Below, in pieces: positions 1 to 55,338 of a DNA stretch of 64,000 bases. The position numbers and the translations under genes are program-made. The stretch is from Alphaproteobacteria bacterium (GTDB taxonomy: Bacteria > Pseudomonadota > Alphaproteobacteria > UBA828). The notes beneath the pieces were generated by a model that did not search any database, was not told the DNA's origin, and saw only the letters and a list, made by a program, of their open reading frames with translations. How positions within the stretch are numbered: the first letter of the stretch is position 1; every line of letters starts with the position of its first letter. Where the stretch lies: positions 1,752,221 to 1,816,220 of the forward strand of contig CBDEUP010000007.1 of assembly GCA_965243315.1 (NCBI GenBank). The letters run 5' to 3'.

Positions 1-326
1 CGACGGCGAGCGAATGGGCACGCATTCGCGAACTCGCGGCTGAGGCGGACATGGATCTCTCGCGCTACATCGTGCACCGGGCGACCGTGCCGGACCCGCT
101 GCCGCGCCGCGCGGTACGCGAGCTTCTGCTGCTCGCCAAGATCGAGGAGCAGCGCATGGCCGATATGGGTCTTGAGGAGCGCTGGAAAACGCTCGGCGAT
201 GCCGTCAATGCATGGCTTGACCGGGAGGCTGAGTTCGACCGGCTGACCGATCCGGGCGCCGCCGAACGCTGGCGGGCGGTCTCCGGCAGCGCCGATCCGG
301 AGTGCGGCCCCGCGCCGCAGCCCTGA
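1..326 (+). CDS. Ribbon-helix-helix (MobC/CopG-like) protein, 5'-truncated by window edge
   Basis: The frame runs from position 3 in-frame with ORF 51..326. The translation begins ...TASEWARIRELAAEADMDLSRYIVHRAT, which is the classic RHH/MobC motif. Confidence 0.55.
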   Translation, partial: TASEWARIRELAAEADMDLSRYIVHRATVPDPLPRRAVRELLLLAKIEEQRMADMGLEERWKTLGDAVNAWLDREAEFDRLTDPGAAERWRAVSGSADPECGPAPQP

Positions 327-798: not shown

Positions 799-923
799 CC
801 TGTGCTGCGTATGTTCTCCACCCGACTCTTGACAGGGCGACGCGTCGCGTTTAGGTAGCGGGCCATAGCGCCGATTTGAGCGACAGCTTGCGGGCGCTTT
901 ACAAATGCGGCTAAAGCGTTGGG

Positions 924-957
924 GCCCGCCCGGCAAAGCCGCGGCGGGTTTTGTGTG
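924..957 (+). terminator. Intrinsic-terminator-like hairpin followed by T-tract
   Basis: Sequence is gcccgcccggc-aaa-gccgcggcgggt followed by ttttgtgtg. That is an ~11-bp GC stem with a 3-nt loop and then a T-rich run. It lies between the upstream gene, which ends at 798, and metH. Confidence 0.4.
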
Positions 958-1051
958 CGGCGGGCCACCGAGGCAGGACGTGGCGGCAGCACGGGAAGAA
1001 AACCCGCAGGGGAGCGGCGCCAGACCGGAGAAGGGTCGGCGTGCCGCGCGC

Positions 1052-4747
<3,696 letters not shown>

Positions 4748-15682: not shown

Positions 15683-16810
15683 ATGGGTATTTTGATGATG
15701 ACCGATACCCCGGATATTGTGGTCTTCGACCGCGTGCAAAAGAGCTACGACGGCGAGATCCTGGTCGTCAAGGACCTCAATCTGAGCATCAAGACTGGTG
15801 AGTTCCTGACGATGTTGGGCCCTTCGGGATCCGGCAAGACCACATGCTTGATGATGTTGGCTGGTTTTGAGCCGGCTACTCATGGAGAAATCTATTTGAA
15901 CGATCGCCCGATCAACAAAGTTGCGCCGCATCGACGAAATATCGGAATGGTCTTCCAGGATTATGCGCTGTTCCCGCACATGACCGTCACGGAGAATCTG
16001 GCGTTTCCTCTAAAAGTTCGAAGGATTCCGAAATCGGAGATTGAGGCAAAAGTCAAGCGAGCGCTGGACATGGTTCGCCTGCCGGACTTCGGTGGCCGCC
16101 GTCCCGGCCAACTCTCGGGCGGCCAGCAACAACGCGTGGCGGTGGCACGGGCGCTGGTGTTCGAGCCCGACCTGGTGCTTATGGATGAGCCTCTCGGCGC
16201 CTTGGACAAGAATCTGCGGGAGGAGATGCAGTACGAAATAAAACACCTTCACGAAGAGCTGGGCGTTACTATCGTCTACGTCACGCATGATCAGTCCGAA
16301 GCGTTGACCATGTCCAATCGTATTGCGGTCTTTAATGATGGTGTAATTCAGCAATTGGCAAGCCCTAGCGCGCTGTACGAACAACCGGAGAACGCCTTCG
16401 TTGCGCAGTTTATCGGCGAGAACAATCGTTTGTGCGGCAAGGTAAATTCCGTTGAGGGGAACCATTGCCAGGTGAATTTGGATGGTGGTGGCACCGTTCG
16501 AGCCCTCAATGTGAGGGTCGAAGGGGCGGGCGCACGCACGACTCTCTCGCTCCGCCCTGAGCGCGTTATCGTCGCGTGCGAGGATGGGGAGGTGGACAAC
16601 TCCATCGTCGGTCGGGTCGAAGAGTTGATCTATCTGGGAGACCACATCCGCGCGCGCTTGTCCGTCGCGGCAACAGATGAGTTTGTTGTGAAGATTCCCA
16701 ATACAGATCGCCATGCGGCGCTGCGCGAGGGCATGAAGGTCAACCTGGGCTGGGCTGCGGAAGATTGCCGGGCGCTGGATGCGCCGACTGATGCGGCCGA
16801 GCCCGGTTAG
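15683..16810 (+). CDS. ABC transporter ATP-binding protein (PotA-like), lower-GC gene
   Basis: Walker [10 protein letters not shown], signature [15 protein letters not shown] and a TOBE-like C-terminus. GC is about 52-55%, against about 68% for the rest of the window. Confidence 0.9.
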
Positions 16811-18081: not shown

Positions 18082-19344
18082 ATGTCGACGGTCGCCGATA
18101 GCACCCTGCGAACCGCCGATGGCGTGCCATTGAAGACGAGCCTGCGGCGGGCGATGGCCCGCAGGCGCATTCGCACATTCTTGTTGGTTGTCCCCATTCT
18201 GGTGTTTTTGTTGATCACGTTTGTTTTTCCCGTCATCGACATGTTGTTTAGAAGCGTCGACAACCAAATCGTTTCATCTGTTCTGCCTCGTACAACGCTG
18301 GCCATTCAAAGCTGGGATCCGGGGAGCGAGGAGCTGCCACCGGAATTCGTGTACGAAGCTCTGGTGCTGGATATTCAAGAGTCGTTCAAGGACAAGACGC
18401 TGGGCCGTGCCGGACGTCGCTTGAATTACGAAAAGTCCGGCGTGATGAGCTTGTTCCGGAAATCGGGACGACGAGCCAAACGCATCACCGAGGCCCCCTT
18501 CAAGGACCAAGTCATAGCAATTGACCAACGCTGGGCAGACTTGGCGACTTGGCAGCTGATTTATCAGGAATCGAGCAGCGTAACCGAAAGCTACTTCTTG
18601 TCGGCTGTCGACCTTCGGGTTGACTACAAGGGTGAAATATCCTGGAAGGCGGAAGAACGACGAATATACTTGTTCTTATTTTATCGTACGTTGTGGATGA
18701 GTGCGCTCATCACGATATTCTGCTTGCTACTCGGTTATCCGATTGCCTTCCTCCTGGCGACGTTACCACCGCGCCATAGCAATCTCTTGCTCATTCTCGT
18801 CTTGTTGCCATTCTGGACCTCTCTGCTGGTTAGGACGACTGCGTGGATTGCGTTGCTTCAGTCCGAAGGCGTGCTGAACGACCTTATGGTGTTCCTGGGC
18901 ATAATTTCCGAAGACGGTCGTTTGCAGATGATTCACAACAAGATCGGCACCTTCGTGGCGATGACTCACATTCTTTTGCCCTTTATGATTCTGCCCCTCT
19001 ATTCCGTCATGAAGACAATTCCCTCTTCGTATATGCGCGCTGCTCGCTCGCTCGGGGCATCACCGTTCACTGGCTTTATCAAGGTCTATATGCCCAATAC
19101 CGTACCTGGTATCGGCGCCGGCTGCATTCTGGTATTCATTCTTTCGATCGGTTATTACATCACGCCGGCGCTGGTCGGAGGACGAACCGGCACGTTCATC
19201 TCGAACATCATCGCCCTTCACATTAGCGAGACGTTAAACTGGGGTCTGGCGGCTGCGCTGGGCGTGATTTTGTTGGCGCTCGTCCTGTTGCTCTATTTCC
19301 TCTATGACAGGATCGTCGGCGTCGCCAACATGAAGCTCGGATAG
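18082..19344 (+). CDS. ABC transporter permease (PotB-like with N-terminal extension), low-GC
   Basis: Polytopic membrane protein with the permease signature. GC is about 50%. Confidence 0.85.
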   Translation: MSTVADSTLRTADGVPLKTSLRRAMARRRIRTFLLVVPILVFLLITFVFPVIDMLFRSVDNQIVSSVLPRTTLAIQSWDPGSEELPPEFVYEALVLDIQESFKDKTLGRAGRRLNYEKSGVMSLFRKSGRRAKRITEAPFKDQVIAIDQRWADLATWQLIYQESSSVTESYFLSAVDLRVDYKGEISWKAEERRIYLFLFYRTLWMSALITIFCLLLGYPIAFLLATLPPRHSNLLLILVLLPFWTSLLVRTTAWIALLQSEGVLNDLMVFLGIISEDGRLQMIHNKIGTFVAMTHILLPFMILPLYSVMKTIPSSYMRAARSLGASPFTGFIKVYMPNTVPGIGAGCILVFILSIGYYITPALVGGRTGTFISNIIALHISETLNWGLAAALGVILLALVLLLYFLYDRIVGVANMKLG

Positions 19345-19349
19345 CGCGC

Positions 19350-20198
19350 ATGCCGCCGCCGCTGCACGCCACGCACTCAGAACGGGTCTGGTATTACACG
19401 TTCCGAACGCTGTGCGTGCTGATTTTTATTTTCTTGGTCGGTCCTATTTTCGTCATTATTCCACTCAGCTTTAACGAACTTCCCTACTTTACCTTCACGC
19501 CCGAGATGCTTGCCTTCGACCCGGCAGGCTACAGCACGAAGTGGTATCAGGAATTCTTCACCGAGGACTCTTGGCAAAGGGCAGTACAGAACAGCTTCCT
19601 CATCGCGGTATTCGCCACGCTCATTTCGACATTCCTCGGCACCCTGGCGGCGCTCGGGCTCAGCAGGCCCGAAATGCCCTTCAGGAAGACGATTATGGCG
19701 CTGTTGATTTCGCCGATGATCGTTCCGCTTATAATTTCGGCCGCCGGTATGTATTTCTTTTATGCAAGGATCGGACTCGCCTCGACGCATGTCGGCGTCA
19801 TTCTTGCCCATGCGGCGTTGGGCATCCCCTTCGTAATCATCACGGTGACGGCGACGTTGGTGGGCTTCGACCACTCGCTCACCCGCGCGGCCGCAAGCCT
19901 GGGGTCGAGCCCGACGCGGACCTTCTTCGTTGTGATCGTGCCCCTGATCTTGCCCGGCGTCATATCGGGCGCGCTGCTAGCGTTCATCACCTCCTTCGAC
20001 GAGGTGGTGGTCGTGCTGTTCGTGGGCTCGGTGGAGCAGCGAACGATTCCCTGGAAGATGTTCTCAGGGATTCGCGAGGAGATCCGTCCGACCATCCTCG
20101 CCGTCGCGACGCTCCTGGTGGTCGTGTCGATCATTTTGTTGACGATGGTGGAGCTCCTGCGGCGGCGGAGCGAGCGGCTACGCGGGATTCGCTCTTAA
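19350..20198 (+). CDS. ABC transporter permease (PotC-like), low-GC
   Basis: Membrane protein with EAAxSLG-type permease motif AASLGSSPTRTF. Confidence 0.85.
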   Translation: MPPPLHATHSERVWYYTFRTLCVLIFIFLVGPIFVIIPLSFNELPYFTFTPEMLAFDPAGYSTKWYQEFFTEDSWQRAVQNSFLIAVFATLISTFLGTLAALGLSRPEMPFRKTIMALLISPMIVPLIISAAGMYFFYARIGLASTHVGVILAHAALGIPFVIITVTATLVGFDHSLTRAAASLGSSPTRTFFVVIVPLILPGVISGALLAFITSFDEVVVVLFVGSVEQRTIPWKMFSGIREEIRPTILAVATLLVVVSIILLTMVELLRRRSERLRGIRS

Positions 20199-20212
20199 AC
20201 GCCATATAGTAA

Positions 20213-20227
20213 CGCCACATAGTGGCG
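20213..20227 (+). terminator. Hairpin cgccac-ata-gtggcg immediately after the permease stop
   Basis: 6-bp perfect stem with a 3-nt loop. There is no clear U-tract, so this is a weak terminator candidate. Confidence 0.25.
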
Positions 20228-20238
20228 CGCCGGCAAAT

Positions 20239-20253
20239 GTTCTTGTAATGTTC
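20239..20253 (+). promoter_or_regulatory. Alphaproteobacterial LexA (SOS) box, GTTC-N7-GTTC
   Basis: Sequence aatGTTCttgtaatGTTCttgt has GTTC, a 7-nt spacer, then GTTC, a perfect match to the alphaproteobacterial LexA direct-repeat operator. It sits just upstream of the radical-SAM gene. Confidence 0.5.
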
Positions 20254-20277
20254 TTGTCCACCACCTATGCTGTGGCG

Positions 20278-21342
20278 ATGAGTGGCGTGCGCAAGGGGCG
20301 GGGGGCAGCGAGCAACCGGAGCGGGCGCTACGAACGCCACCAACGAGAGGTTTTCGACGACGGTTGGAGCACCATCGATGAGGAACCGCGGCCCCTTCGC
20401 ACGGAGGTTCGGCCCGATGCCAGCCGCACGGTGATAACCCGCAACAACTCCCCCGACCTCGGCTTCGATCGTTCAATCAACGTCTATCGCGGCTGCGAGC
20501 ATGGCTGCGTCTATTGTTACGCACGCCCCACCCACGCCTTTCTCGGGCTCTCGCCCGGCCAGGACTTCGAGAGCCGCATCTTTGCCAAGCACGATGCGCC
20601 GGCCCAGCTGGAGCGTGAGCTGGCCAGACCGGGCTACCGGTGCCGCATGATCGCGATGGGCACCAACACCGACCCCTACCAGCCGACTGAGCGTCGCCTC
20701 GCGCTGACGCGAGGCGTGCTCGAGGTGCTGGACCGTTGCAATCATCCCGTCGGCATCGTGACCAAGTCGGCGCTGGTGGCGCGGGACGCCGACATTCTCT
20801 CCCGTATGGCACGTCGTCGCCTTGCCACGGTCGCGCTCTCTATCACGACGCTGGACCGCGAGCTCGCCCGCACCATGGAGCCGCGCGCCTCGACGCCAGC
20901 GAAGCGGTTGGAGGCGATCAAGGCGCTGAGCGACGCTGGGGTGCCGGTGGGCGTGATGGTGGCGCCCATCGTACCCGGCCTCACCGATCACGAGATGGAG
21001 GCGATCCTTGAGGCCGCCAGCGAGGTGGGTGCAAGCCGCGCCGGCTACGTCCTCCTGCGGTTGCCGCTGGAGGTCCGGGAGCTTTTTCTGGAATGGCTTT
21101 CGGTCCACGCGCCCAACAAGGCCAAACGGGTGGTCTCTCTATTGCAGGGAATGCGCGCGGGTCGTCTCAACGATCCCCACTTCGGCTCCCGCATGACCGG
21201 CGCTGGCCCCTACGCCGACCTTATCGCTTCGCGCTTCGCCGCGGCGACGAAGCGCCTCGGGCTGGCGCGGCGCGGGCCCGACCTCGACACCGGGCGCTTC
21301 CGCCCGCCATCTCGCGACCCGGCGCAACTCGAACTGTTCTGA
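20278..21342 (+). CDS. Radical SAM protein, PA0069/SPL (spore-photoproduct-lyase-like) DNA-repair family
   Basis: CEHGCVYC is a CxxxCxxC radical-SAM cluster motif. Overall similarity is to the SplB-like PA0069 family. ORF was called from 20248, but that ATG lies inside the LexA box, so a start at MSGVRK (20278) or nearby is likelier. Confidence 0.75.
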   Translation: MSGVRKGRGAASNRSGRYERHQREVFDDGWSTIDEEPRPLRTEVRPDASRTVITRNNSPDLGFDRSINVYRGCEHGCVYCYARPTHAFLGLSPGQDFESRIFAKHDAPAQLERELARPGYRCRMIAMGTNTDPYQPTERRLALTRGVLEVLDRCNHPVGIVTKSALVARDADILSRMARRRLATVALSITTLDRELARTMEPRASTPAKRLEAIKALSDAGVPVGVMVAPIVPGLTDHEMEAILEAASEVGASRAGYVLLRLPLEVRELFLEWLSVHAPNKAKRVVSLLQGMRAGRLNDPHFGSRMTGAGPYADLIASRFAAATKRLGLARRGPDLDTGRFRPPSRDPAQLELF

Positions 21343-21380
21343 ACCGCTGACGCGCACGCCAGGCGTGCTAGAACGGCTTC

Positions 21381-22019
21381 ATGGCAGTGAGGCGCAAACA
21401 GCAGGAGCAGCCTGATCTTTCGTTGGAGCACGCGGCCGGCGGGCGCGTGGCTGGCGTCGACGAAGCGGGCAGGGGGCCCTGGGCGGGGCCCGTGGTCGCA
21501 GCGGCTGTGGTGTTCGACGCGGACGGCCCGCCGCCTCGCTTCAGCGTGATGATCACCGATTCCAAGTTGCTCAAGGCGGAACAGCGCGCCGCGCTCCAGC
21601 CGGCGATCTTGGCTTGCGCCGACGCCACCGTTGGCATCGCCAGCGTCGCCGAGATCGATAGCATGAACATCCTTCAGGCTACGCTGCTCGCCATGCGCCG
21701 AGCCGTCGCACGCCTCGCCGAAGTGCCCGACCTGGCGCTGGTGGACGGCAATCGCGCGCCGCGCCTGCCTTGCCCGGCGCGGGCGGTGGTGGGCGGCGAC
21801 CGCAAGAGCCTCTCGATCGCCGCGGCCTCGATCGTCGCCAAGGTGGTCAGGGACCGTCTGATGGCGCGCCTCGCGGCGGACTATCCGGGCTACGGCTGGG
21901 AGCGGAACGCCGGCTACGGCACGGCAGAGCACCAGGCGGGGCTCGCCCGGCTCGGGCCTTGCATACACCACCGGCGCTCCTTTCGTCCGATCCGTGAACT
22001 CCTGGAAGCCGAACCGTGA
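21381..22019 (+). CDS. rnhB: Ribonuclease HII
   Basis: [22 protein letters not shown] is the RNase HII active-site motif, and the protein is about 210 aa. Confidence 0.9.
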
Positions 22020-22597
22020 GCAGCCGCGTGTCCGGCGACGAACTCGTCCTCCATCCGCCGAACATTCTCCGCTGGCGCGGGCGCCGCTTCGCCTGCGCCA
22101 TCGGCTGGGGCGGGGTGCGGACCAACAAGCGCGAGGGCGATGGTGCCACGCCAGCCGGCCGCTTTCCTCTCCGCCGGGTTCTCTACAGGCCGGACCACTT
22201 GGCGCCGCCGCGCACGGCGCTCCCCATCGCACCGCTGAGCCCGCGGGACGGCTGGTGCGACGACCCCACCCACCCGCTTTACAACCGGCCGCTTCGACTG
22301 CCGCACGAGGCTCGCCATGAGGAGCTCTGGCGGGCGGACCGGGTCTACGATGTCATCGTCATTCTCGGTCACAACGATGCGCCCGTCGTGCAGGACCTCG
22401 GCAGTGCGGTGTTCTTGCACGTCGCTCAGCCGGACTACGCGCCCACCGCAGGCTGCGTCGCTGTGGCGGCAGGCGATCTGCTGACGATTCTGGCCGGCGT
22501 GGGCAGACGCACGTGTCTTCGCGTGCCACTCGCCGCAGCGCCTCCTGCTCGTTGCAGAAAGCCGTCCCTGGTTTTCGGCGGCATCGGATTCCAGTAG
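22016..22597 (+). CDS. L,D-transpeptidase (YkuD)-like domain protein
   Basis: [18 protein letters not shown] matches the H...(S/T)xGC catalytic motif. The start overlaps the rnhB stop in an ATGA arrangement. Confidence 0.5.
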
Positions 22598-22634
22598 GGT
22601 GCCAAGCAATCCGAAAACGAGGAGGTCGTATCCC

Positions 22635-23645
22635 ATGAAGAAACTCGCTCTCGCACTTCTGGCCGCCGCCACCCTGGCTGTGGCAGGGCCTGTTAGCGCC
22701 CAGGAAGACATGCCGTTCGCGCTTGACTGGAAGTTCGAAGGTCCCTCTGGGCCGTATTTCGCGGCCATCGACAACGGCCACTTCGAAGCCGCCGGACTCA
22801 ATGTCGAGATCTCCGCCGGCCAGGGCTCGCTGGATGCCATTCCCAAGGTCGCCACCGGCGCCTTCCCGGTCGGCTTCGCGGACATCAACTCTCTGGTCAA
22901 GTTCCTGGACCAGAATCCTGGTGCACCGGTCATCGCGGTCATGATGATCTATGACAAGCCGCCGTTCGCCGTCGTCGGCCGCAAGAGCCTCGGCGTCAGC
23001 GTGCCGAAGGATCTCGAGGGGCGGGTGCTCGGAGCGCCGCCGCCGGATGGTGCCTGGGCCCAATTCCCGGCCTTTGCCACCGCCAACGACCTCGATATGG
23101 ACAAGATCACCGTCGAGCCCGTCGGCTTTCCGACCCGCGAGCCGATGCTTGCAGAAGGCAACGTGGATGCCGTGACCGGCTATTCCTTTTCGTCATTCCT
23201 GAACCTCGTCCGCCTCGGCGTGCCAGAGGACGACATTTCGACCATCCTGATGGCGGATTACGGTCTCGCGCTCTACGGCAACGCGATCATCGTGAACACC
23301 GACTATGCGGCCGCCAATGGGGACAAGGTCACCGGCTTCATCACCGCCGTGGCGAAGGGGTGGAAGGATGCCATCGCCGATCCGGCGAAGGCCATTGAAT
23401 CACTGGTGAAGCGGAACCCCGCCGCCGATGCGGCGCTTGAAACTCGCCGGCTTCAGCTCTCCATCGATGCCAATGTGCTGACCGACTACACGAGCGCCAA
23501 CGGAATCGGCGGTATTGACGCTGCGCGCATGGACAAGGCGCTGATGCAGCTCGCGGAGACGTACGAGTTCCAGAACGAGCCGGACGCTTCGCTCTATTTC
23601 ACGGACGCCTATCTGCCTGCGGCTGAAATGAGGATGCTCCAGTAG
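22635..23645 (+). CDS. NMT1/THI5-like (NitT/TauT family) ABC substrate-binding protein
   Basis: Start MKKLALALLAAATLAVAGPVSA with a signal peptide. The protein has the character of a taurine/sulfonate/nitrate-type SBP. Confidence 0.75.
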   Translation: MKKLALALLAAATLAVAGPVSAQEDMPFALDWKFEGPSGPYFAAIDNGHFEAAGLNVEISAGQGSLDAIPKVATGAFPVGFADINSLVKFLDQNPGAPVIAVMMIYDKPPFAVVGRKSLGVSVPKDLEGRVLGAPPPDGAWAQFPAFATANDLDMDKITVEPVGFPTREPMLAEGNVDAVTGYSFSSFLNLVRLGVPEDDISTILMADYGLALYGNAIIVNTDYAAANGDKVTGFITAVAKGWKDAIADPAKAIESLVKRNPAADAALETRRLQLSIDANVLTDYTSANGIGGIDAARMDKALMQLAETYEFQNEPDASLYFTDAYLPAAEMRMLQ

Positions 23646-36968: not shown

Positions 36969-37152
36969 TGGAGCGCGTCCGTCTCCGACGGACACGCGAC
37001 AGGCCGCGACCGCGGTCCGCCGCTTTTGCGGCGCCCTCGCCGGGCACGGCGCGGGCTTGATTGTCTGCAGCGACCGGCACGCACTATAGTTGCGCCCCGG
37101 CGGAGTCGGGCAGCGCGCTACGGGCGGGTGCCGCCGGCGGAGGAGACCAGCC

Positions 37153-37470
37153 ATGACGGTCAGCGCCGCGAAGTTCGAGGTCGGCCAGGTCGTCCACCAC
37201 CTGAAGTTCGGCTATCGCGGCGTAGTCTTCGACGCCGATCCGTGCTTCCAGGGCACCGATGAATGGTACGAGCAGGTCGCGCGCTCGCGCCCGCCGAAGG
37301 ACAGGCCGTGGTATCACGTTCTGGTTCACGATGCGGCGCACACCACCTATGTCGCCGAGCGCCATCTGGAGCCTGACCCGGAGGGCGGGCCCATCCAGCA
37401 CCGGCTGCTGGCTCAGCTCTTCGGCGGCTTCGAGAACGGCCGCTACCGCACCGTTCGCGCTATCAATTGA
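37153..37470 (+). CDS. hspQ: Heat-shock protein HspQ (YccV-like hemimethylated-DNA-binding domain)
   Basis: MTVSAAKFEVGQVVHHLKFGYRGVVFDADP matches HspQ. RBS ggaggag lies upstream. Confidence 0.8.
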   Translation: MTVSAAKFEVGQVVHHLKFGYRGVVFDADPCFQGTDEWYEQVARSRPPKDRPWYHVLVHDAAHTTYVAERHLEPDPEGGPIQHRLLAQLFGGFENGRYRTVRAIN

Positions 37471-42266: not shown

Positions 42267-43385
<1,119 letters not shown>

Positions 43386-51901: not shown

Positions 51902-53086
51902 ATGCGGGCAAGTGGTTTGCGCGCGGCTCTCCTCATGGCTATCTGGCTCACGCTTCCGGGTGCTGCGGCGGCGCAGGCAGAAGAGCCAGGGGTGACCGAC
52001 CAGCAGATCCTCTTCGGACAATCGGCGGCTTTCAGCGGTCCCGCGCAGGACCTGGGTAAGAACCTGCGGCTCGGTATCCAGGCGGCGTTCGAGGAAGCGA
52101 ACCGGCGCGGCGGCGTGCACGGGCGCACGCTGGCGCTTCGGTCTCTCGACGACGCCTACGAGCCGGAAGCCGCGATCGCCAATACCCGCCGGCTGATCGC
52201 CGACGATGGCGTCTTCGCCCTGATCGGCGCAGTCGGTACGCCGACCTCCCGCTCAGCTACACCCATAGCGGCCCATGCGGGCGTTCCCTACCTCGCGCCC
52301 TTCACCGGCGCCGAGTTCCTGCGCGACCCCAAGTTGCGCAACGTGATCAATCTGCGTGCCTCCTACTACCAGGAGACCGAGGCAATGGTCTCCCGCCTGA
52401 TCGGAGATCTGGGAATTGACCGGGTCGGGGTGATCTATCAGGACGATTCCTTCGGGCAGGCCGGCTATCGAGGGGTACGCCGGGCGCTCGAGCGGCGCGG
52501 GCTGGCGCCCGTGGCGATCGGGGTCTACCCGCGCAACACGACAGCCGTGAAAACGGCATTGCTCGACGTGCGGCGCTCTGATCTCGGAGCCGTCATCCTG
52601 GTCGGAGCCTATGAGCCGGTCGCCGCGCTGATCGCCTGGGCGCGGCACACCGGCTTCGATCCCGTTTTCCTGACGATTTCCTTCGTCGGCAGCAACGCTC
52701 TGGCGAGAGAGCTGGGTGCCGCCGGCGCCGGCGTCTTCGTGACCCAGGTGGTGCCCTTCCCCGACGGAGACGAGCCGGCCGTTACTCTGGCCTATCGCCG
52801 CGCTCTGGCCGCCTATTCGCCCGAAGCCGTGCCGGGCTTCGTCTCGTTCGAAGGCTACCTGGCAGGCCGTCTGGCGATCGCGGCTCTCGAGCGCTGCGGC
52901 CGTGAGGTCGACCGGGCTTGCGTGCTCGATAATCTGCGCCGCGCCGGCGCCATCGATCTCGGAGGCTTCGAGCTTCGATACGGCGACGAAGACAATCAAG
53001 GTTCGGACGCCGTCTTCGTGACCGTGATCGGTGGGGACGGCCGCTACCATCCCATCGACACACTTCAGCGCGCCGTGCAGCCATGA
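51902..53086 (+). CDS. Periplasmic binding protein, LivJ/Peripla_BP_6 type, coupled to histidine kinase
   Basis: Start MRASGLRAALLMAIWLTLPGAAAAQ with a signal peptide. The fold resembles the branched-chain amino acid SBP type. The stop overlaps the histidine kinase start in an ATGA arrangement. Confidence 0.75.
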   Translation: MRASGLRAALLMAIWLTLPGAAAAQAEEPGVTDQQILFGQSAAFSGPAQDLGKNLRLGIQAAFEEANRRGGVHGRTLALRSLDDAYEPEAAIANTRRLIADDGVFALIGAVGTPTSRSATPIAAHAGVPYLAPFTGAEFLRDPKLRNVINLRASYYQETEAMVSRLIGDLGIDRVGVIYQDDSFGQAGYRGVRRALERRGLAPVAIGVYPRNTTAVKTALLDVRRSDLGAVILVGAYEPVAALIAWARHTGFDPVFLTISFVGSNALARELGAAGAGVFVTQVVPFPDGDEPAVTLAYRRALAAYSPEAVPGFVSFEGYLAGRLAIAALERCGREVDRACVLDNLRRAGAIDLGGFELRYGDEDNQGSDAVFVTVIGGDGRYHPIDTLQRAVQP

Positions 53087-55338
53087 CCACGTTGGCAAGA
53101 CGGCTGCTCGACAGTCGCTTTCGACTCTCGACCCAGCTCTATCTGGGTATCGGGGGCGCTGTCGCGCTCACCGTCGTCGCCAGCGTGGTCGGCCTGGTTT
53201 CCTTCGATCACGTCGCTGAGGTTCAGAGACGCGTCAACGAAGGCAGCGTGCCCGAGATGGTGACGGCCTTCGGCGTGGCGCAGCAAAGCGGTGCCCTTGT
53301 GGCAGCCGGGCCGCGGCTGACGGCTGCAGCGACGCCGGAAGAACTCGCCCACACCGTCGCGGACATTTCACATGACCGGCAAGCCTTCGAAGCCCAGGTA
53401 GCCGCGCTGCCGGATCAGGGAGCGGAGGAGCCGCGCTTCGAGCGCATTCGCACCCAAGGCAATGCCTTGCTCGCGAATGTCGGCGCCATCGAGGAGTCGG
53501 TGGCCGAGGGCTTCCTGCTCACGGAGCGCAGCCAAGCGTTGCGCGCCGAAATCGCGTCCCTGCAACGGGAGCTCGCCGCGGCACTAATTCCGGCCATCGA
53601 CGACCAGCTCTTTTACACGATGACCGGCTATCGGGAGCTCGGCGAGGCGCCGGCACCTCGAGCGGTGCACAGATCGGAGGACGAGTTCAACCGCTATCGC
53701 CACATGGCGGGGTTGCAGGCGAACGCGACGATCGCAATCGAGCTTCTGGCGAGCGCGTTCGACGTCTCAGACATCGCTTTGCTGGAACCGCTCCGGGAGC
53801 GCTTCGAGGCCTCCGCCGGCAAGATCGAGCGCGGCCTGTCGGCCCTGGGCGTCACGCCCCTCCATGCCAGGATTGCACCCGCCTTGTCCCGTCTCGTCGA
53901 TCTGGGTCTGGGCCACGATCAAGGCTTCGACTTGCGGGCTCAGGAACTTTCTCTCGATGAGCGTCAGACGGCGTTGCTCGCGTCCAACAACAATCTTGCT
54001 GTCGAACTCGCCGCCGAGGCAGAGGGGCTGGTCAGCGCGGCGCGTGGGAGCGTCCAAGACGCGGCGCAGGCGTCCTCGTCGGCGATCAGCACCGGCGGCA
54101 ATCTCCTGCTTGCGATCAGCGTGACCAGCATCGTCGGGGCGGTGCTGATCTCATGGCTGTTCGTCGGCCGCGTGCTGATGCGGCGTCTCGGGCGGCTCTC
54201 GGATCGGATGCGCCGGATGGCCGAGGGCGATATCGAGGCGGAAGTGGTGGTCGACGGACGAGGCGAGGTCGCGGACATGGCCGCGGCGTTGGAGGTCTTT
54301 CGCCGTCACGCGCTCGAAGTCCAACGGCTCAACTTGGTGGAGAAGCTGGCAGAGGAGCTCAAGGGCAAGAACGAGCAGCTCGAGGACGCACTCGCGAACC
54401 TTCAGCGAGCGCAAGACCAGATCGTCATGCAGGAGAAGCTCGCGGCGCTTGGCGAGCTCACTGCCGGCGTGGCGCACGAAATCCGGAACCCGCTGAACTT
54501 CGTCAAGAACTTTTCAGACGTAACGGAGCAGTTGCTGGAAGAACTCCTGGAAGAGCTGCAAACGGTTCTCCCTGAGCCGGTCGACGGGAAGGAGGACGAG
54601 AGCAGTGCGCTGATTCGAGAAATCAGCGCCGACATCACGGAAAACCTCAGATTGATTCGGGAGCACGGCGAGCGCGCAAATCAGATCGTACACCACATGC
54701 TCAGCATGGGGCGTGATTCGGGCGGCCGACAACCGACGGACATCAATGCCCTGCTCGACGAGCATGTGCGGCTTGCCTACCACAGCGCCCGGGCAAGCGA
54801 TGACAGCTTTCAACTCGATATCGTCCAGGACTTCGATCCGGCGGTCGGATCTCTCGACGTCGTCACTCAGGACGTGGGCCGCGTCTTCCTGAACCTGGTC
54901 GGCAATGCCTGCCAGGCGACTGCCGAGAGGCGGCGCGCCGAGGAAGCCGCGGACGCAGCGGATCCCGGCCCCGAGGGCTCGGAAGGGGGCGCTTACGAGC
55001 CCACGCTCACCCTGGTCACCCGACGATCCGAAGAAGGGGTCGAAATCCGAATCAGAGACAACGGGAGCGGGATCCCACCCGAAATCATCGCCGACATCTT
55101 CAACCCCTTCTTCACGACCAAGCCGCCGGACCAGGGCACCGGTCTGGGCCTCGCGCTCTCGAGCGACATCGTTCGCCAGCACGGCGGCGAAATCAGGGTG
55201 GAGTCCGAAGTCGGCGTGTTCACCGAAATGATCGTCACGCTGGCCGCGCAACCGCCTCAGCAGACCGAGGACGACGCGGCCGAGGACGAGGCGGAGTTAG
55301 AGGACGAGCACCCCAAGGAGTCGCCCTTGCCATCGTGA
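53083..55338 (+). CDS. Sensor histidine kinase (TM, ~300-aa periplasmic domain, TM, HAMP, HisKA, HATPase_c), no REC
   Basis: H-box AAGVAHEIRNPLNFV. N and G boxes include NLVGNACQA and GTGLGLALS. There are two TM segments and a HAMP domain after TM2. Confidence 0.85.
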   Translation: MTTLARRLLDSRFRLSTQLYLGIGGAVALTVVASVVGLVSFDHVAEVQRRVNEGSVPEMVTAFGVAQQSGALVAAGPRLTAAATPEELAHTVADISHDRQAFEAQVAALPDQGAEEPRFERIRTQGNALLANVGAIEESVAEGFLLTERSQALRAEIASLQRELAAALIPAIDDQLFYTMTGYRELGEAPAPRAVHRSEDEFNRYRHMAGLQANATIAIELLASAFDVSDIALLEPLRERFEASAGKIERGLSALGVTPLHARIAPALSRLVDLGLGHDQGFDLRAQELSLDERQTALLASNNNLAVELAAEAEGLVSAARGSVQDAAQASSSAISTGGNLLLAISVTSIVGAVLISWLFVGRVLMRRLGRLSDRMRRMAEGDIEAEVVVDGRGEVADMAAALEVFRRHALEVQRLNLVEKLAEELKGKNEQLEDALANLQRAQDQIVMQEKLAALGELTAGVAHEIRNPLNFVKNFSDVTEQLLEELLEELQTVLPEPVDGKEDESSALIREISADITENLRLIREHGERANQIVHHMLSMGRDSGGRQPTDINALLDEHVRLAYHSARASDDSFQLDIVQDFDPAVGSLDVVTQDVGRVFLNLVGNACQATAERRRAEEAADAADPGPEGSEGGAYEPTLTLVTRRSEEGVEIRIRDNGSGIPPEIIADIFNPFFTTKPPDQGTGLGLALSSDIVRQHGGEIRVESEVGVFTEMIVTLAAQPPQQTEDDAAEDEAELEDEHPKESPLPS

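Follow-up and report, generated by a model that had tools for sequence, protein, structure and literature searches.

A putative LexA operator fused to the predicted core promoter of a PA0069-family radical-SAM gene in an alphaproteobacterium

A direct repeat of the form GTTC-N7-GTTC, which is the LexA motif of Alphaproteobacteria (PMC3323433; bioRxiv 10.1101/2025.01.26.634973), lies just upstream of a radical-SAM gene in the 64-kb stretch of alphaproteobacterial DNA analysed here (the window), and an ATG that could open the reading frame of this gene lies within the repeat itself. Could this repeat be a LexA operator that places the gene under SOS control, and if so, where do the promoter and the coding sequence begin? 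From comparison with orthologous loci, we consider it likely that a LexA (SOS) operator is fused here to the core promoter of a PA0069-family radical-SAM gene.

The repeat and the radical-SAM gene behind it

The repeat occupies positions 20239-20253 of the plus strand and reads GTTC-TTGTAAT-GTTC (GTTCTTGTAATGTTC), matching GTTC-N7-GTTC with zero mismatches. It is intergenic and ends 24 nt upstream of the ATG at 20278 (25-39 nt counted from that ATG); as a putative LexA operator of the alphaproteobacterial type, it would extend from -39 to -25 when counted from the predicted start of transcription. The sequence agrees with the first-pass annotation, which had described an exact copy of the motif just upstream of a start at 20278. 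On its own, the pattern is no commoner in the window than chance would have it: two copies were found against 1.63 expected, and at least two were seen in 51 of 100 shuffles. The second copy (16379-16393, minus strand) runs antisense within an ABC ATPase gene. Because the bare pattern is not enriched in the window, footprinting of orthologous loci was used instead, and the significance of the repeat at 20239-20253 rests on its conservation at those loci rather than on pattern counts. Profile searches of the 64-kb window detected no recA, lexA or uvrA.

The gene behind the repeat (20278-21342, plus strand, stop codon included) encodes a protein of 354 aa. The full PA0069-family profile NF033668 (positions 1-348 of 348) aligns to this protein and scores 524.9 bits, with the cut-off at 360, and Pfam PF04055 (Radical_SAM) matches the protein with 80.4 bits. 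The CxxxCxxC cluster motif is present as CEHGCVYC, and its cysteines (C83, C87 and C90 in the numbering of the long ORF) are invariant in 19 sequences. Among the matches listed, the best from named genomes are 56-63% identical, and nearly all are from Alphaproteobacteria. A relative with 90% identity lies on ENA contig ERZ25071132:ctg819969. At first pass the protein had been assigned to a PA0069/spore photoproduct lyase (SPL) family; membership of the PA0069 family stands, but the link to SPL is only distant, with 18.8 bits against the cut-off of 400 of the SPL profile TIGR04070. The profile of the Rv2578c family (NF038135) also stays below its cut-off, with 227.3 bits against 430. A sequence search of the PDB returned no relative of the protein. 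With Foldseek, SPL chains came out on top (E 1e-5, TM 0.40-0.44) and other radical-SAM proteins close behind, at low confidence; the structure model used, built from 19 sequences, is poor (mean pLDDT 58, residues 1-113 below 50), so the fold search is only suggestive. The product is a distant relative of SPL and presumably acts on damaged DNA.

Conservation of the box and its relation to LexA operators

Within 400 nt upstream of the gene, an exact forward box is found at 73 of 80 alphaproteobacterial orthologue loci. The forward upstream windows of the 80 loci (36 kb) hold 75 exact copies where 0.29 would be expected (Poisson P about 1e-150), and there are 8 copies in 1.0 Mb elsewhere. A matrix was derived from the orthologue sites, in which the two GTTC half-sites are the most conserved positions; at a threshold of 14 bits it finds an upstream match at 77 of the 80 loci, with one match elsewhere in 520 kb. 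The site in the window scores 32.95 bits, which is the median of the orthologue set, and is the sole position above 8 bits on either strand of the 64 kb. The box travels with the radical-SAM gene: close relatives carry various genes upstream (an ABC permease, DnaB, a Na/Pi transporter, a zincin, a glycosyltransferase), and ahead of the gene conservation is limited to the stretch from box to ATG. A chance repeat without a regulatory role would account for the unremarkable count of the pattern in the window. However, retention of position and strand at such a large majority of loci, conservation confined to the box-to-ATG region among unrelated neighbours, and the fit of the extended sequence to the orthologue consensus at 33 bits (the other, intragenic match in the window scores below 8) effectively refute this explanation, which we find barely credible.

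The 16-mer TGTTCTTGTNNTGTTC was also traced in metagenomes, where many matches are AT-rich chance occurrences and 47 high-GC contigs form the informative set. In ten of these 47, the 16-mer lies upstream of the PA0069-type radical-SAM family, and metagenomic copies also precede a DnaE2-like gene and a radA gene.

Conservation of the element could also reflect a promoter module, or the site of a regulator other than LexA. For example, the spacer has its TTG at the -35 position, and of the other genes that follow the 16-mer in metagenomes, most fall outside the classical SOS set. Against this, the most conserved positions are the GTTC half-sites and not the TTG alone, and the same matrix, applied to other alphaproteobacterial genomes, recovers recA and lexA operators there as well. 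In S. meliloti Ak57, the sites are GTTCTTGCTTTGTTC at the radical-SAM orthologue, GTACATGTTTTGTTC at recA (20.3 bits) and GTTCTTGATTTGTTT at lexA (19.3 bits). Sites of 11-24 bits were found at recA in Shinella, Methylobacterium, Sphingomonas, Pseudorhodobacter and Skermanella; at lexA, Shinella and Methylobacterium gave sites of 12.5 and 15.2 bits. The background of the matrix above 11 bits is 5 per million positions. The lexA regions of Cereibacter and Sphingomonas gave no match above 8 bits. In S. meliloti, Shinella and Sphingomonas, whose genomes have matching recA or lexA operators, a boxed orthologue of the radical-SAM gene lies on the same replicon.

The TTG of the spacer is also present in the lexA operators, and a TG in the recA operators, which are oppositely oriented; being on the opposite strand, the recA operator cannot act there as a -35 element. 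The spacer TTG may therefore reflect a preference of LexA as much as a -35 hexamer, and its interpretation as purely a -35 element is weakened. In addition, the gene family is LexA-regulated in phyla with unrelated LexA motifs (PMC3381160; PMC8565304; PMC7739468). We therefore think it improbable that the element is something other than a LexA operator. By these comparisons, made in proxy genomes, the box in the window falls into one motif class with their recA and lexA operators. Together with the match to the published motif and the retention of the box at orthologues, they bear out, at the level of sequence, its initial description as a LexA operator of the alphaproteobacterial type. A motif switch between classes was not reproduced, as no CTGT-N8-ACAG-type box was present in the examined stretch of two loci labelled Gammaproteobacteria (L048, L069) or of a Ralstonia orthologue (L210).

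Start codon, promoter geometry and downstream genes

The start chosen for the ORF, the ATG at 20248-20250, falls inside the repeat, as had been noticed at first pass, and the next in-frame ATG is that at 20278. The ten codons between them (20248-20277, plus strand) would encode an N-terminal extension, which is open in the window and in locus L081. Yet in L082, L083/84 and L085/86 stops or a frameshift break the extension: in L083, ACG replaces the ATG of the box and an in-frame TAA follows; in L085, an in-frame TAG interrupts it; and in L082, a 1-nt indel puts the ATG of the box out of frame. At the same position L087 has TTG, and L088, whose box has one mismatch, has ATA. The ATG at 20278, in contrast, is invariant among close relatives. 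The NF033668 profile starts at residue 16 of the long ORF. Because relatives interrupt or lack the extension whereas the ATG at 20278 is invariant, the start at 20248 is a mis-call, 30 bases early, and the probable start is the ATG at 20278; the earlier suspicion of a wrongly called start was thus justified. The extension is spurious and represents non-coding promoter DNA opened by an ATG inside the operator. Such an ATG is found inside the box at 13 of 55 orthologue loci, and many database entries for members of the family carry a false 'MF...' N-terminus (364-aa forms). The case illustrates neatly how an ATG that happens to fall within an operator leads gene callers to lengthen an ORF into the promoter that drives it.

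How would the gene be transcribed? A predicted -10 hexamer, TATGCT (20266-20271, plus strand), ends 6 nt before the ATG at 20278, and a predicted -35 hexamer, TTGTAA (20243-20248, plus strand), lies within the operator spacer, 17 nt from the conserved TAnnnT. Each hexamer matches the consensus at four of six positions. A scan for consensus promoters and terminators (9-of-12) over 20100-20400 reported nothing, and so the promoter is inferred from conservation. A TAnnnT exactly 6 nt before the ATG is present in seven of seven close relatives, with T, A and the final T invariant; across 35 orthologue loci, the frequencies of T-12, A-11 and T-7 are 0.74, 0.86 and 0.77. When the orthologue loci are registered on the start ATG, a TTG stands at -35 to -33. 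An in-frame start codon, ATG in all but one case, is found at box+38..40 in 35 of 55 box-bearing loci, irrespective of the distance to the conserved RKGRGA block. No Shine-Dalgarno sequence precedes 20278, which, together with the spacing of the -10 hexamer, marks this ATG as a predicted leaderless start by sequence. The TAnnnT 6 nt before the ATG and the TTG at -35 inside the box predict a leaderless mRNA whose synthesis LexA would block at the -35 element, with the operator situated in the promoter region and overlapping the predicted -35. This layout is not universal: Rhizobiaceae have the box about 80 nt ahead of a start that is preceded by a Shine-Dalgarno sequence, and in Sphingomonas only 10 nt separate it from the ATG.

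Alternatively, the operator could be real and the mRNA could carry a leader, its transcription beginning at a more distant upstream point, as with read-through out of the ABC transporter operon that ends at 20198. LexA would then act as a roadblock or on a different promoter, and translation would begin at 20248, or at 20278 without a Shine-Dalgarno sequence. There is no terminator-like site between the permease gene and the box, and a hairpin at 20214-20228 is no better than those of shuffled sequences and is not conserved in relatives. The open frame from 20248 in the window and L081, and the leader of the Rhizobiaceae orthologue, would also fit such a transcript. However, the extension is broken in relatives as described above, and the relatives that keep the box-to-ATG stretch have differing upstream neighbours, some of them divergently oriented. 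Moreover, unless transcription starts at the ATG, it is difficult to see why distant lineages should share a fixed TAnnnT-N6-ATG and an ATG at box+38..40. A leadered mRNA is thus unlikely, although less so than a site for some other regulator. An Rfam search of 19000-23000 found no family and one sub-threshold chance match.

For this locus, we infer LexA binding, the transcription start, leaderless translation, the extent of the operon and the role of the enzyme, and the preferred reading, a LexA operator within the core promoter, would run as follows. In undamaged cells, a LexA dimer would sit on the direct repeat at 20239-20253 and, by covering the -35 hexamer of a sigma-70-type promoter, keep RNA polymerase off. 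Upon DNA damage, RecA filaments would promote self-cleavage of LexA and the promoter would fire. Transcription would start at, or within a base or two of, A20278, yielding a leaderless mRNA translated from the ATG at 20278 into the radical-SAM enzyme, which would presumably act on damaged DNA.

Transcription would probably run on into the next two genes. The first, rnhB (RNase HII; 21381-22019, plus strand; NF000595, 240.4 bits against a cut-off of 167), begins 38 nt downstream of the radical-SAM stop codon, and the gap holds no terminator-like site. It is found downstream on the same strand at 56 of 80 orthologue loci and in all close relatives. A YkuD-domain (L,D-transpeptidase-like) gene (22016-22597, plus strand; Pfam PF03734, 48.7 bits) follows, overlapping the rnhB stop by 4 nt; its place after rnhB is kept in L081-L088, and it was not found there in the 80 more distant orthologue loci. 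Thus, rnhB and the YkuD-domain gene may be co-transcribed with the radical-SAM gene, the latter as a third gene in this clade.

A more ambitious interpretation, which we put forward tentatively and consider rather doubtful, is that box, promoter and start codon form a compact, portable module of ~42 nt, with the LexA box over the -35 element, the -10 hexamer at a set distance and the transcript beginning with the AUG. Its register would be fixed across much of Alphaproteobacteria while the protein N-terminus behind it varies in length, and in this clade it would drive a leaderless SOS operon that comprises rnhB and the YkuD-domain gene besides the radical-SAM gene. If there is such an operon, RNase HII, and hence ribonucleotide excision repair, would be under DNA-damage control, and RNase HII could perhaps clear ribonucleotides left by SOS translesion polymerases.

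Comparison with known SOS-controlled radical-SAM genes

That SplB-like radical-SAM genes come under SOS control has been published before, for Alpha- and Betaproteobacteria as well as for P. aeruginosa and M. tuberculosis (PMC3323433; PMC8565304), and the finding reported here, sound but ordinary, leaves the current understanding of the SOS response unchanged. With about 80 genomes compared, it strengthens the case for counting the SplB-like radical-SAM gene among the core members of the alphaproteobacterial SOS regulon. What is new here is the TAnnnT 6 nt before the ATG, the TTG that falls at -35 within the box and the ATG at box+38..40. The rnhB linkage and the predicted leaderless layout count as small additions.

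A close precedent is splB, assigned by prediction to the LexA regulon in both Alpha- and Betaproteobacteria (Sanchez-Alberola et al. 2012, BMC Genomics 13:58, PMC3323433). Like the gene in the window, splB is an SPL-like radical-SAM gene behind a class-specific LexA box, which in Alphaproteobacteria is GTTC-N7-GTTC; the orthologues detected here in rhizobia and Paracoccus are members of the same family. That study was a comparative genomic analysis of multi-chromosome species, and the promoter/start geometry, leaderless layout and rnhB linkage noted here are not part of it. The organism of the window also differs from the named genomes, as reflected in the 56-63% identity among the matches listed.

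In P. aeruginosa, LexA controls 15 genes, among them PA0069 (Cirz et al. 2006, as cited in bioRxiv 10.1101/2022.03.14.484287). PA0069 is the namesake of NF033668, whose cut-off the gene in the window exceeds, and it is damage-induced through LexA. However, PA0069 is gammaproteobacterial, and its LexA therefore recognises a different motif, CTGT-N8-ACAG (Beta-/Gammaproteobacteria, PMC3323433).

In M. tuberculosis, a LexA ChIP-seq peak lies at Rv2578c/Rv2579, and the response is RecA-dependent (PMC3381160). Rv2578c resembles the protein in the window as a related radical-SAM protein whose LexA control has been shown experimentally. It differs in belonging to a sister family, NF038135, of which the protein in the window, on its score given above, is not a member, and in being controlled through a Gram-positive-type LexA motif. 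More distantly, SplB of Bacillus/Geobacillus (TIGR04070; PDB 4FHC) shares the radical-SAM core and CxxxCxxC with the protein in the window and is the best solved-structure match to its model (E 1e-5, TM about 0.4, from a poor model), but SplB acts in spores, and the protein in the window stays far below the TIGR04070 cut-off (18.8 bits against 400). The PA0069/SplB-like enzyme is SOS-controlled in several phyla.

The repeat and the gene it precedes

The sequence around the repeat reads ggcaaatGTTCttgtaatGTTCttgtccaccacctatgctgtggcgATGagtggc, and it contains an exact GTTC-N7-GTTC direct repeat on the forward strand at 20239-20253, with both the position and the pattern as the first-pass annotation had described them. 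GTTC-N7-GTTC is the LexA motif of Alphaproteobacteria (PMC3323433; bioRxiv 10.1101/2025.01.26.634973). By itself, the bare pattern is uninformative within the window, whose GC content is 65.2% (1-64000): there are two copies versus 1.63 expected, and at least two in 51 of 100 shuffles. Of the two, the copy at 16379-16393 (minus strand) falls antisense within a PotA-like ABC ATPase gene (15683-16810); with the operator matrix described below it stays under 8 bits, so it is a chance match. A small inverted repeat, CGCCAC-ATA-GTGGCG (20214-20228), sits between the box and the stop of an ABC permease gene (20198); it folds no more stably than shuffled sequences (z -0.45), and relatives with the same upstream gene do not conserve it.

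The downstream ORF matches NCBIfam NF033668, the PA0069-family radical-SAM protein, end to end (524.9 bits, cut-off 360), from residue 16 of the long ORF. A Pfam search found the Radical_SAM domain, and the CxxxCxxC motif (CEHGCVYC) does not vary among the homologues. The sister family of Rv2578c was rejected (227 bits against a cut-off of 430). The proposed PA0069 assignment thus stands, while kinship to spore photoproduct lyase is fair only in the loose, COG1533/SplB-like sense, because the TIGR04070 score for the lyase proper is 18.8 bits against a cut-off of 400 and the fold match is weak: a low-confidence model (pLDDT 58) has the lyase as its best PDB match at E 1e-5 and a TM of about 0.4. 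A sequence search of solved structures with the window protein detected none.

Conservation and the case for a LexA operator

We collected 80 orthologue loci from one-genome-per-species contigs (56-63% identity, among the matches listed); those with a named taxon are nearly all Alphaproteobacteria, from many families, again among the matches listed. In 73 of these 80 loci, the 400 nt preceding the gene contain an exact GTTC-N7-GTTC in forward orientation. The upstream windows, 36 kb in all, hold 75 such copies, where 0.29 would be expected; the remaining 1.0 Mb, counted on both strands, holds 8. Several loci that lack an exact copy have GTAC-N7-GTTC at the same position. The orthologue sites share the extended consensus wTGTTCTTGnttTGTTCy, and with a position-weight matrix built from them the window box scores 32.95 bits, equal to the median of the set; no other position in the 64-kb window exceeds 8 bits. 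Above 14 bits, a match occurs in the expected place in 77 of 80 loci, and elsewhere only once in 520 kb.

Six independent close relatives (77-90% identity) were aligned. Their upstream neighbours differ (ABC permease, DnaB, Na/Pi cotransporter, zincin, glycosyltransferase), and the alignment is conserved in the box and down to the ATG, with no conservation upstream of the box. The element belongs to the radical-SAM gene.

Is the box a LexA site? We searched the gene content of the window and found no SOS gene besides the radical-SAM gene, and no recA, lexA, uvrA or translesion polymerase gene; it includes metH (905-4747), several polyamine-type and NMT1-type ABC transporters, urease subunits (about 31.0-33.5 kb), an hspQ-like gene (37090-37470), panB/panC (37.5-40.0 kb), a cytochrome P450 (40692-42128, minus), mreB (42267-43337, minus) and a HAMP histidine kinase (53083-55338). 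The comparison with recA and lexA, a check proposed in the first pass, was made by proxy, in other genomes, using records that hold an orthologue plus recA or lexA in a plasmid collection that includes chromids and mislabelled chromosomes. In S. meliloti Ak57, the orthologue has the site GTTCTTGCTTTGTTC (listed without a matrix score), recA has GTACATGTTTTGTTC on the opposite strand (20.3 bits), and lexA has GTTCTTGATTTGTTT with adjoining GAACACATATGGAAC (19.3 bits). The matrix also picked out recA sites, always at the same position and scoring 11-24 bits, in Shinella, Methylobacterium, Sphingomonas, Pseudorhodobacter and Skermanella, and lexA sites scoring 12.5 bits in Shinella and 15.2 bits in Methylobacterium, against a background of 5 per million positions above 11 bits; the Cereibacter and Sphingomonas lexA regions have no match above 8 bits. 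Among the 47 high-GC contigs from an unbiased metagenome scan for TGTTCTTGTNNTGTTC, 10 have a gene of the same radical-SAM family as the window gene just 3' of the motif; genes for a DnaE2-like polymerase and for radA also turned up. Taken together, 20239-20253 is very probably a functional LexA operator.

Two observations concern the proxy records themselves. Skermanella rosea pSR-2 carries a strong exact box, GTTCATGATTTGTTC (29.2 bits, position 393 of the fetched locus L217), 208 nt upstream of recA, besides the usual site close to recA; this extra box may act on the divergent hypothetical gene. PLSDB record CP090106.1 (fetched loci L209, L212 and L218) bears the label 'Sinorhizobium meliloti Ak57 plasmid pSymB' but has a length of 3.72 Mb and includes recA, alaS, lexA and ATP synthase genes, so it looks like a mislabelled main chromosome. 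Several other chromosome-sized records in this 'plasmids' collection come from Shinella (4.6 Mb) and E. coli (4.8-4.9 Mb).

Start codon and promoter geometry

The mechanical ORF list (20248..21342, 364 aa) starts the gene at an ATG inside the repeat, as had been pointed out, at its bases 10-12; the next in-frame ATG, at 20278, follows the repeat end by 24 nt. Close relatives interrupt or lack the extension. Two loci with a 90% identical protein (L083 and L084) have ACG in place of the box ATG and then an in-frame TAA, L085 and L086 have an in-frame TAG after it, L082 has it out of frame through a 1-nt indel, L087 has TTG, and L088 has ATA in a box with one mismatch. The ATG at 20278 is invariant in all seven aligned sequences, and protein conservation starts at RKGRGA, five residues past it. 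Translation therefore starts, in all likelihood, at 20278, as had been proposed. With this, the first-pass observation is confirmed and its overall reading, an SOS box with a mis-called start, is supported.

An ATG lies inside the box (box+9) in 13 of 55 orthologue loci. It arises simply because the operator's A/T-rich spacer runs into TGTTC, and it accounts for the many 364-aa 'MF...' database entries. Gene callers pick the box ATG as start, and many proteins of the family are 364-aa entries with a false 'MF...' N-terminus.

In the close relatives, the only conserved part of the stretch between box and ATG is T-A-n-n-n-T (TATGCT, 20266-20271, in the window), exactly 6 nt before the ATG in seven of seven sequences. 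More widely, 35 of 55 orthologue loci have an ATG at 38-40 nt from the first box base; a separate check of reading frame placed an in-frame start codon there in most loci, with a single one not ATG. This offset holds whether 57 nt or about 200 nt separate the box from the RKGRGA block; N-terminus length thus varies while the ATG register is kept. In Bradyrhizobium-like and other lineages (for example L004, L015, L020, L023, L028 and L030, within L003-L036), the ATG is at 38-40 nt and RKGRGA is 150-200 nt away, which implies putative N-terminal extensions of 30-50 residues of variable sequence. Registered on the ATG, the orthologue loci favour T at -12, A at -11 and T at -7, and TTG occupies -35..-33.

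Conservation thus predicts a forward-strand -35 hexamer TTGTAA (20243-20248), a 17-nt spacer, a -10 hexamer TATGCT (20266-20271) and a transcription start at about 20278, and inspection of the window sequence found no Shine-Dalgarno sequence before 20278. On this geometry we propose, and somewhat favour, a leaderless mRNA. A sigma-70-type promoter would start transcription at the first base of the start codon, the message would be translated from ATG 20278, and LexA bound at -39..-25 would occlude the -35 element. Each predicted hexamer matches consensus at 4/6 positions, below the threshold of a promoter scan. The TTG/TG of the spacer may partly reflect LexA preference, since it also occurs in lexA and recA operators. 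Nor is the leaderless layout universal: in Rhizobiaceae orthologues the start follows a leader of some 80 nt that includes a Shine-Dalgarno sequence, whereas in Sphingomonas 10 nt separate the box from the ATG.

Downstream genes and known SOS systems

Two forward-strand genes follow within 21381-22597: rnhB (RNase HII; NF000595, 240 bits), which begins 38 nt past the radical-SAM stop codon across a gap that shows no terminator-like site, and a YkuD-domain gene overlapping the rnhB stop by 4 nt. All close relatives have this three-gene cluster, and in 56 of 80 orthologue loci rnhB follows in the same orientation at varying distances. In this clade the SOS promoter could plausibly drive rnhB and the YkuD-domain gene as well, and the cluster may be an SOS-inducible operon, with extension of SOS control to rnhB a tentative proposal. 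In our literature search, no publication tied rnhB to LexA in this manner.

The link between LexA and radical-SAM genes has itself been published. Control of splB by LexA was predicted for Alpha- and Betaproteobacteria and discussed at length by Sanchez-Alberola et al. 2012 (PMC3323433), and a 2021 paper describes the SplB radical-SAM protein (COG1533) as "SOS regulated in several species" (PMC8565304). A preprint (bioRxiv 10.1101/2022.03.14.484287) cites Cirz 2006 for PA0069 as one of 15 P. aeruginosa SOS genes. The core Gram-positive SOS regulon lists a radical-SAM protein (PMC7739468), ChIP-seq in M. tuberculosis found LexA binding at Rv2578c/Rv2579 (PMC3381160), and a radical-SAM gene of S. 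venezuelae is bound by LexA (PMC9380542). Thus, the central claim is a further instance of a known regulatory link, to which our analysis adds a firm start-codon correction, the breadth of the footprint, a proposed promoter layout for a leaderless message, and the linkage to rnhB and the YkuD-domain gene.
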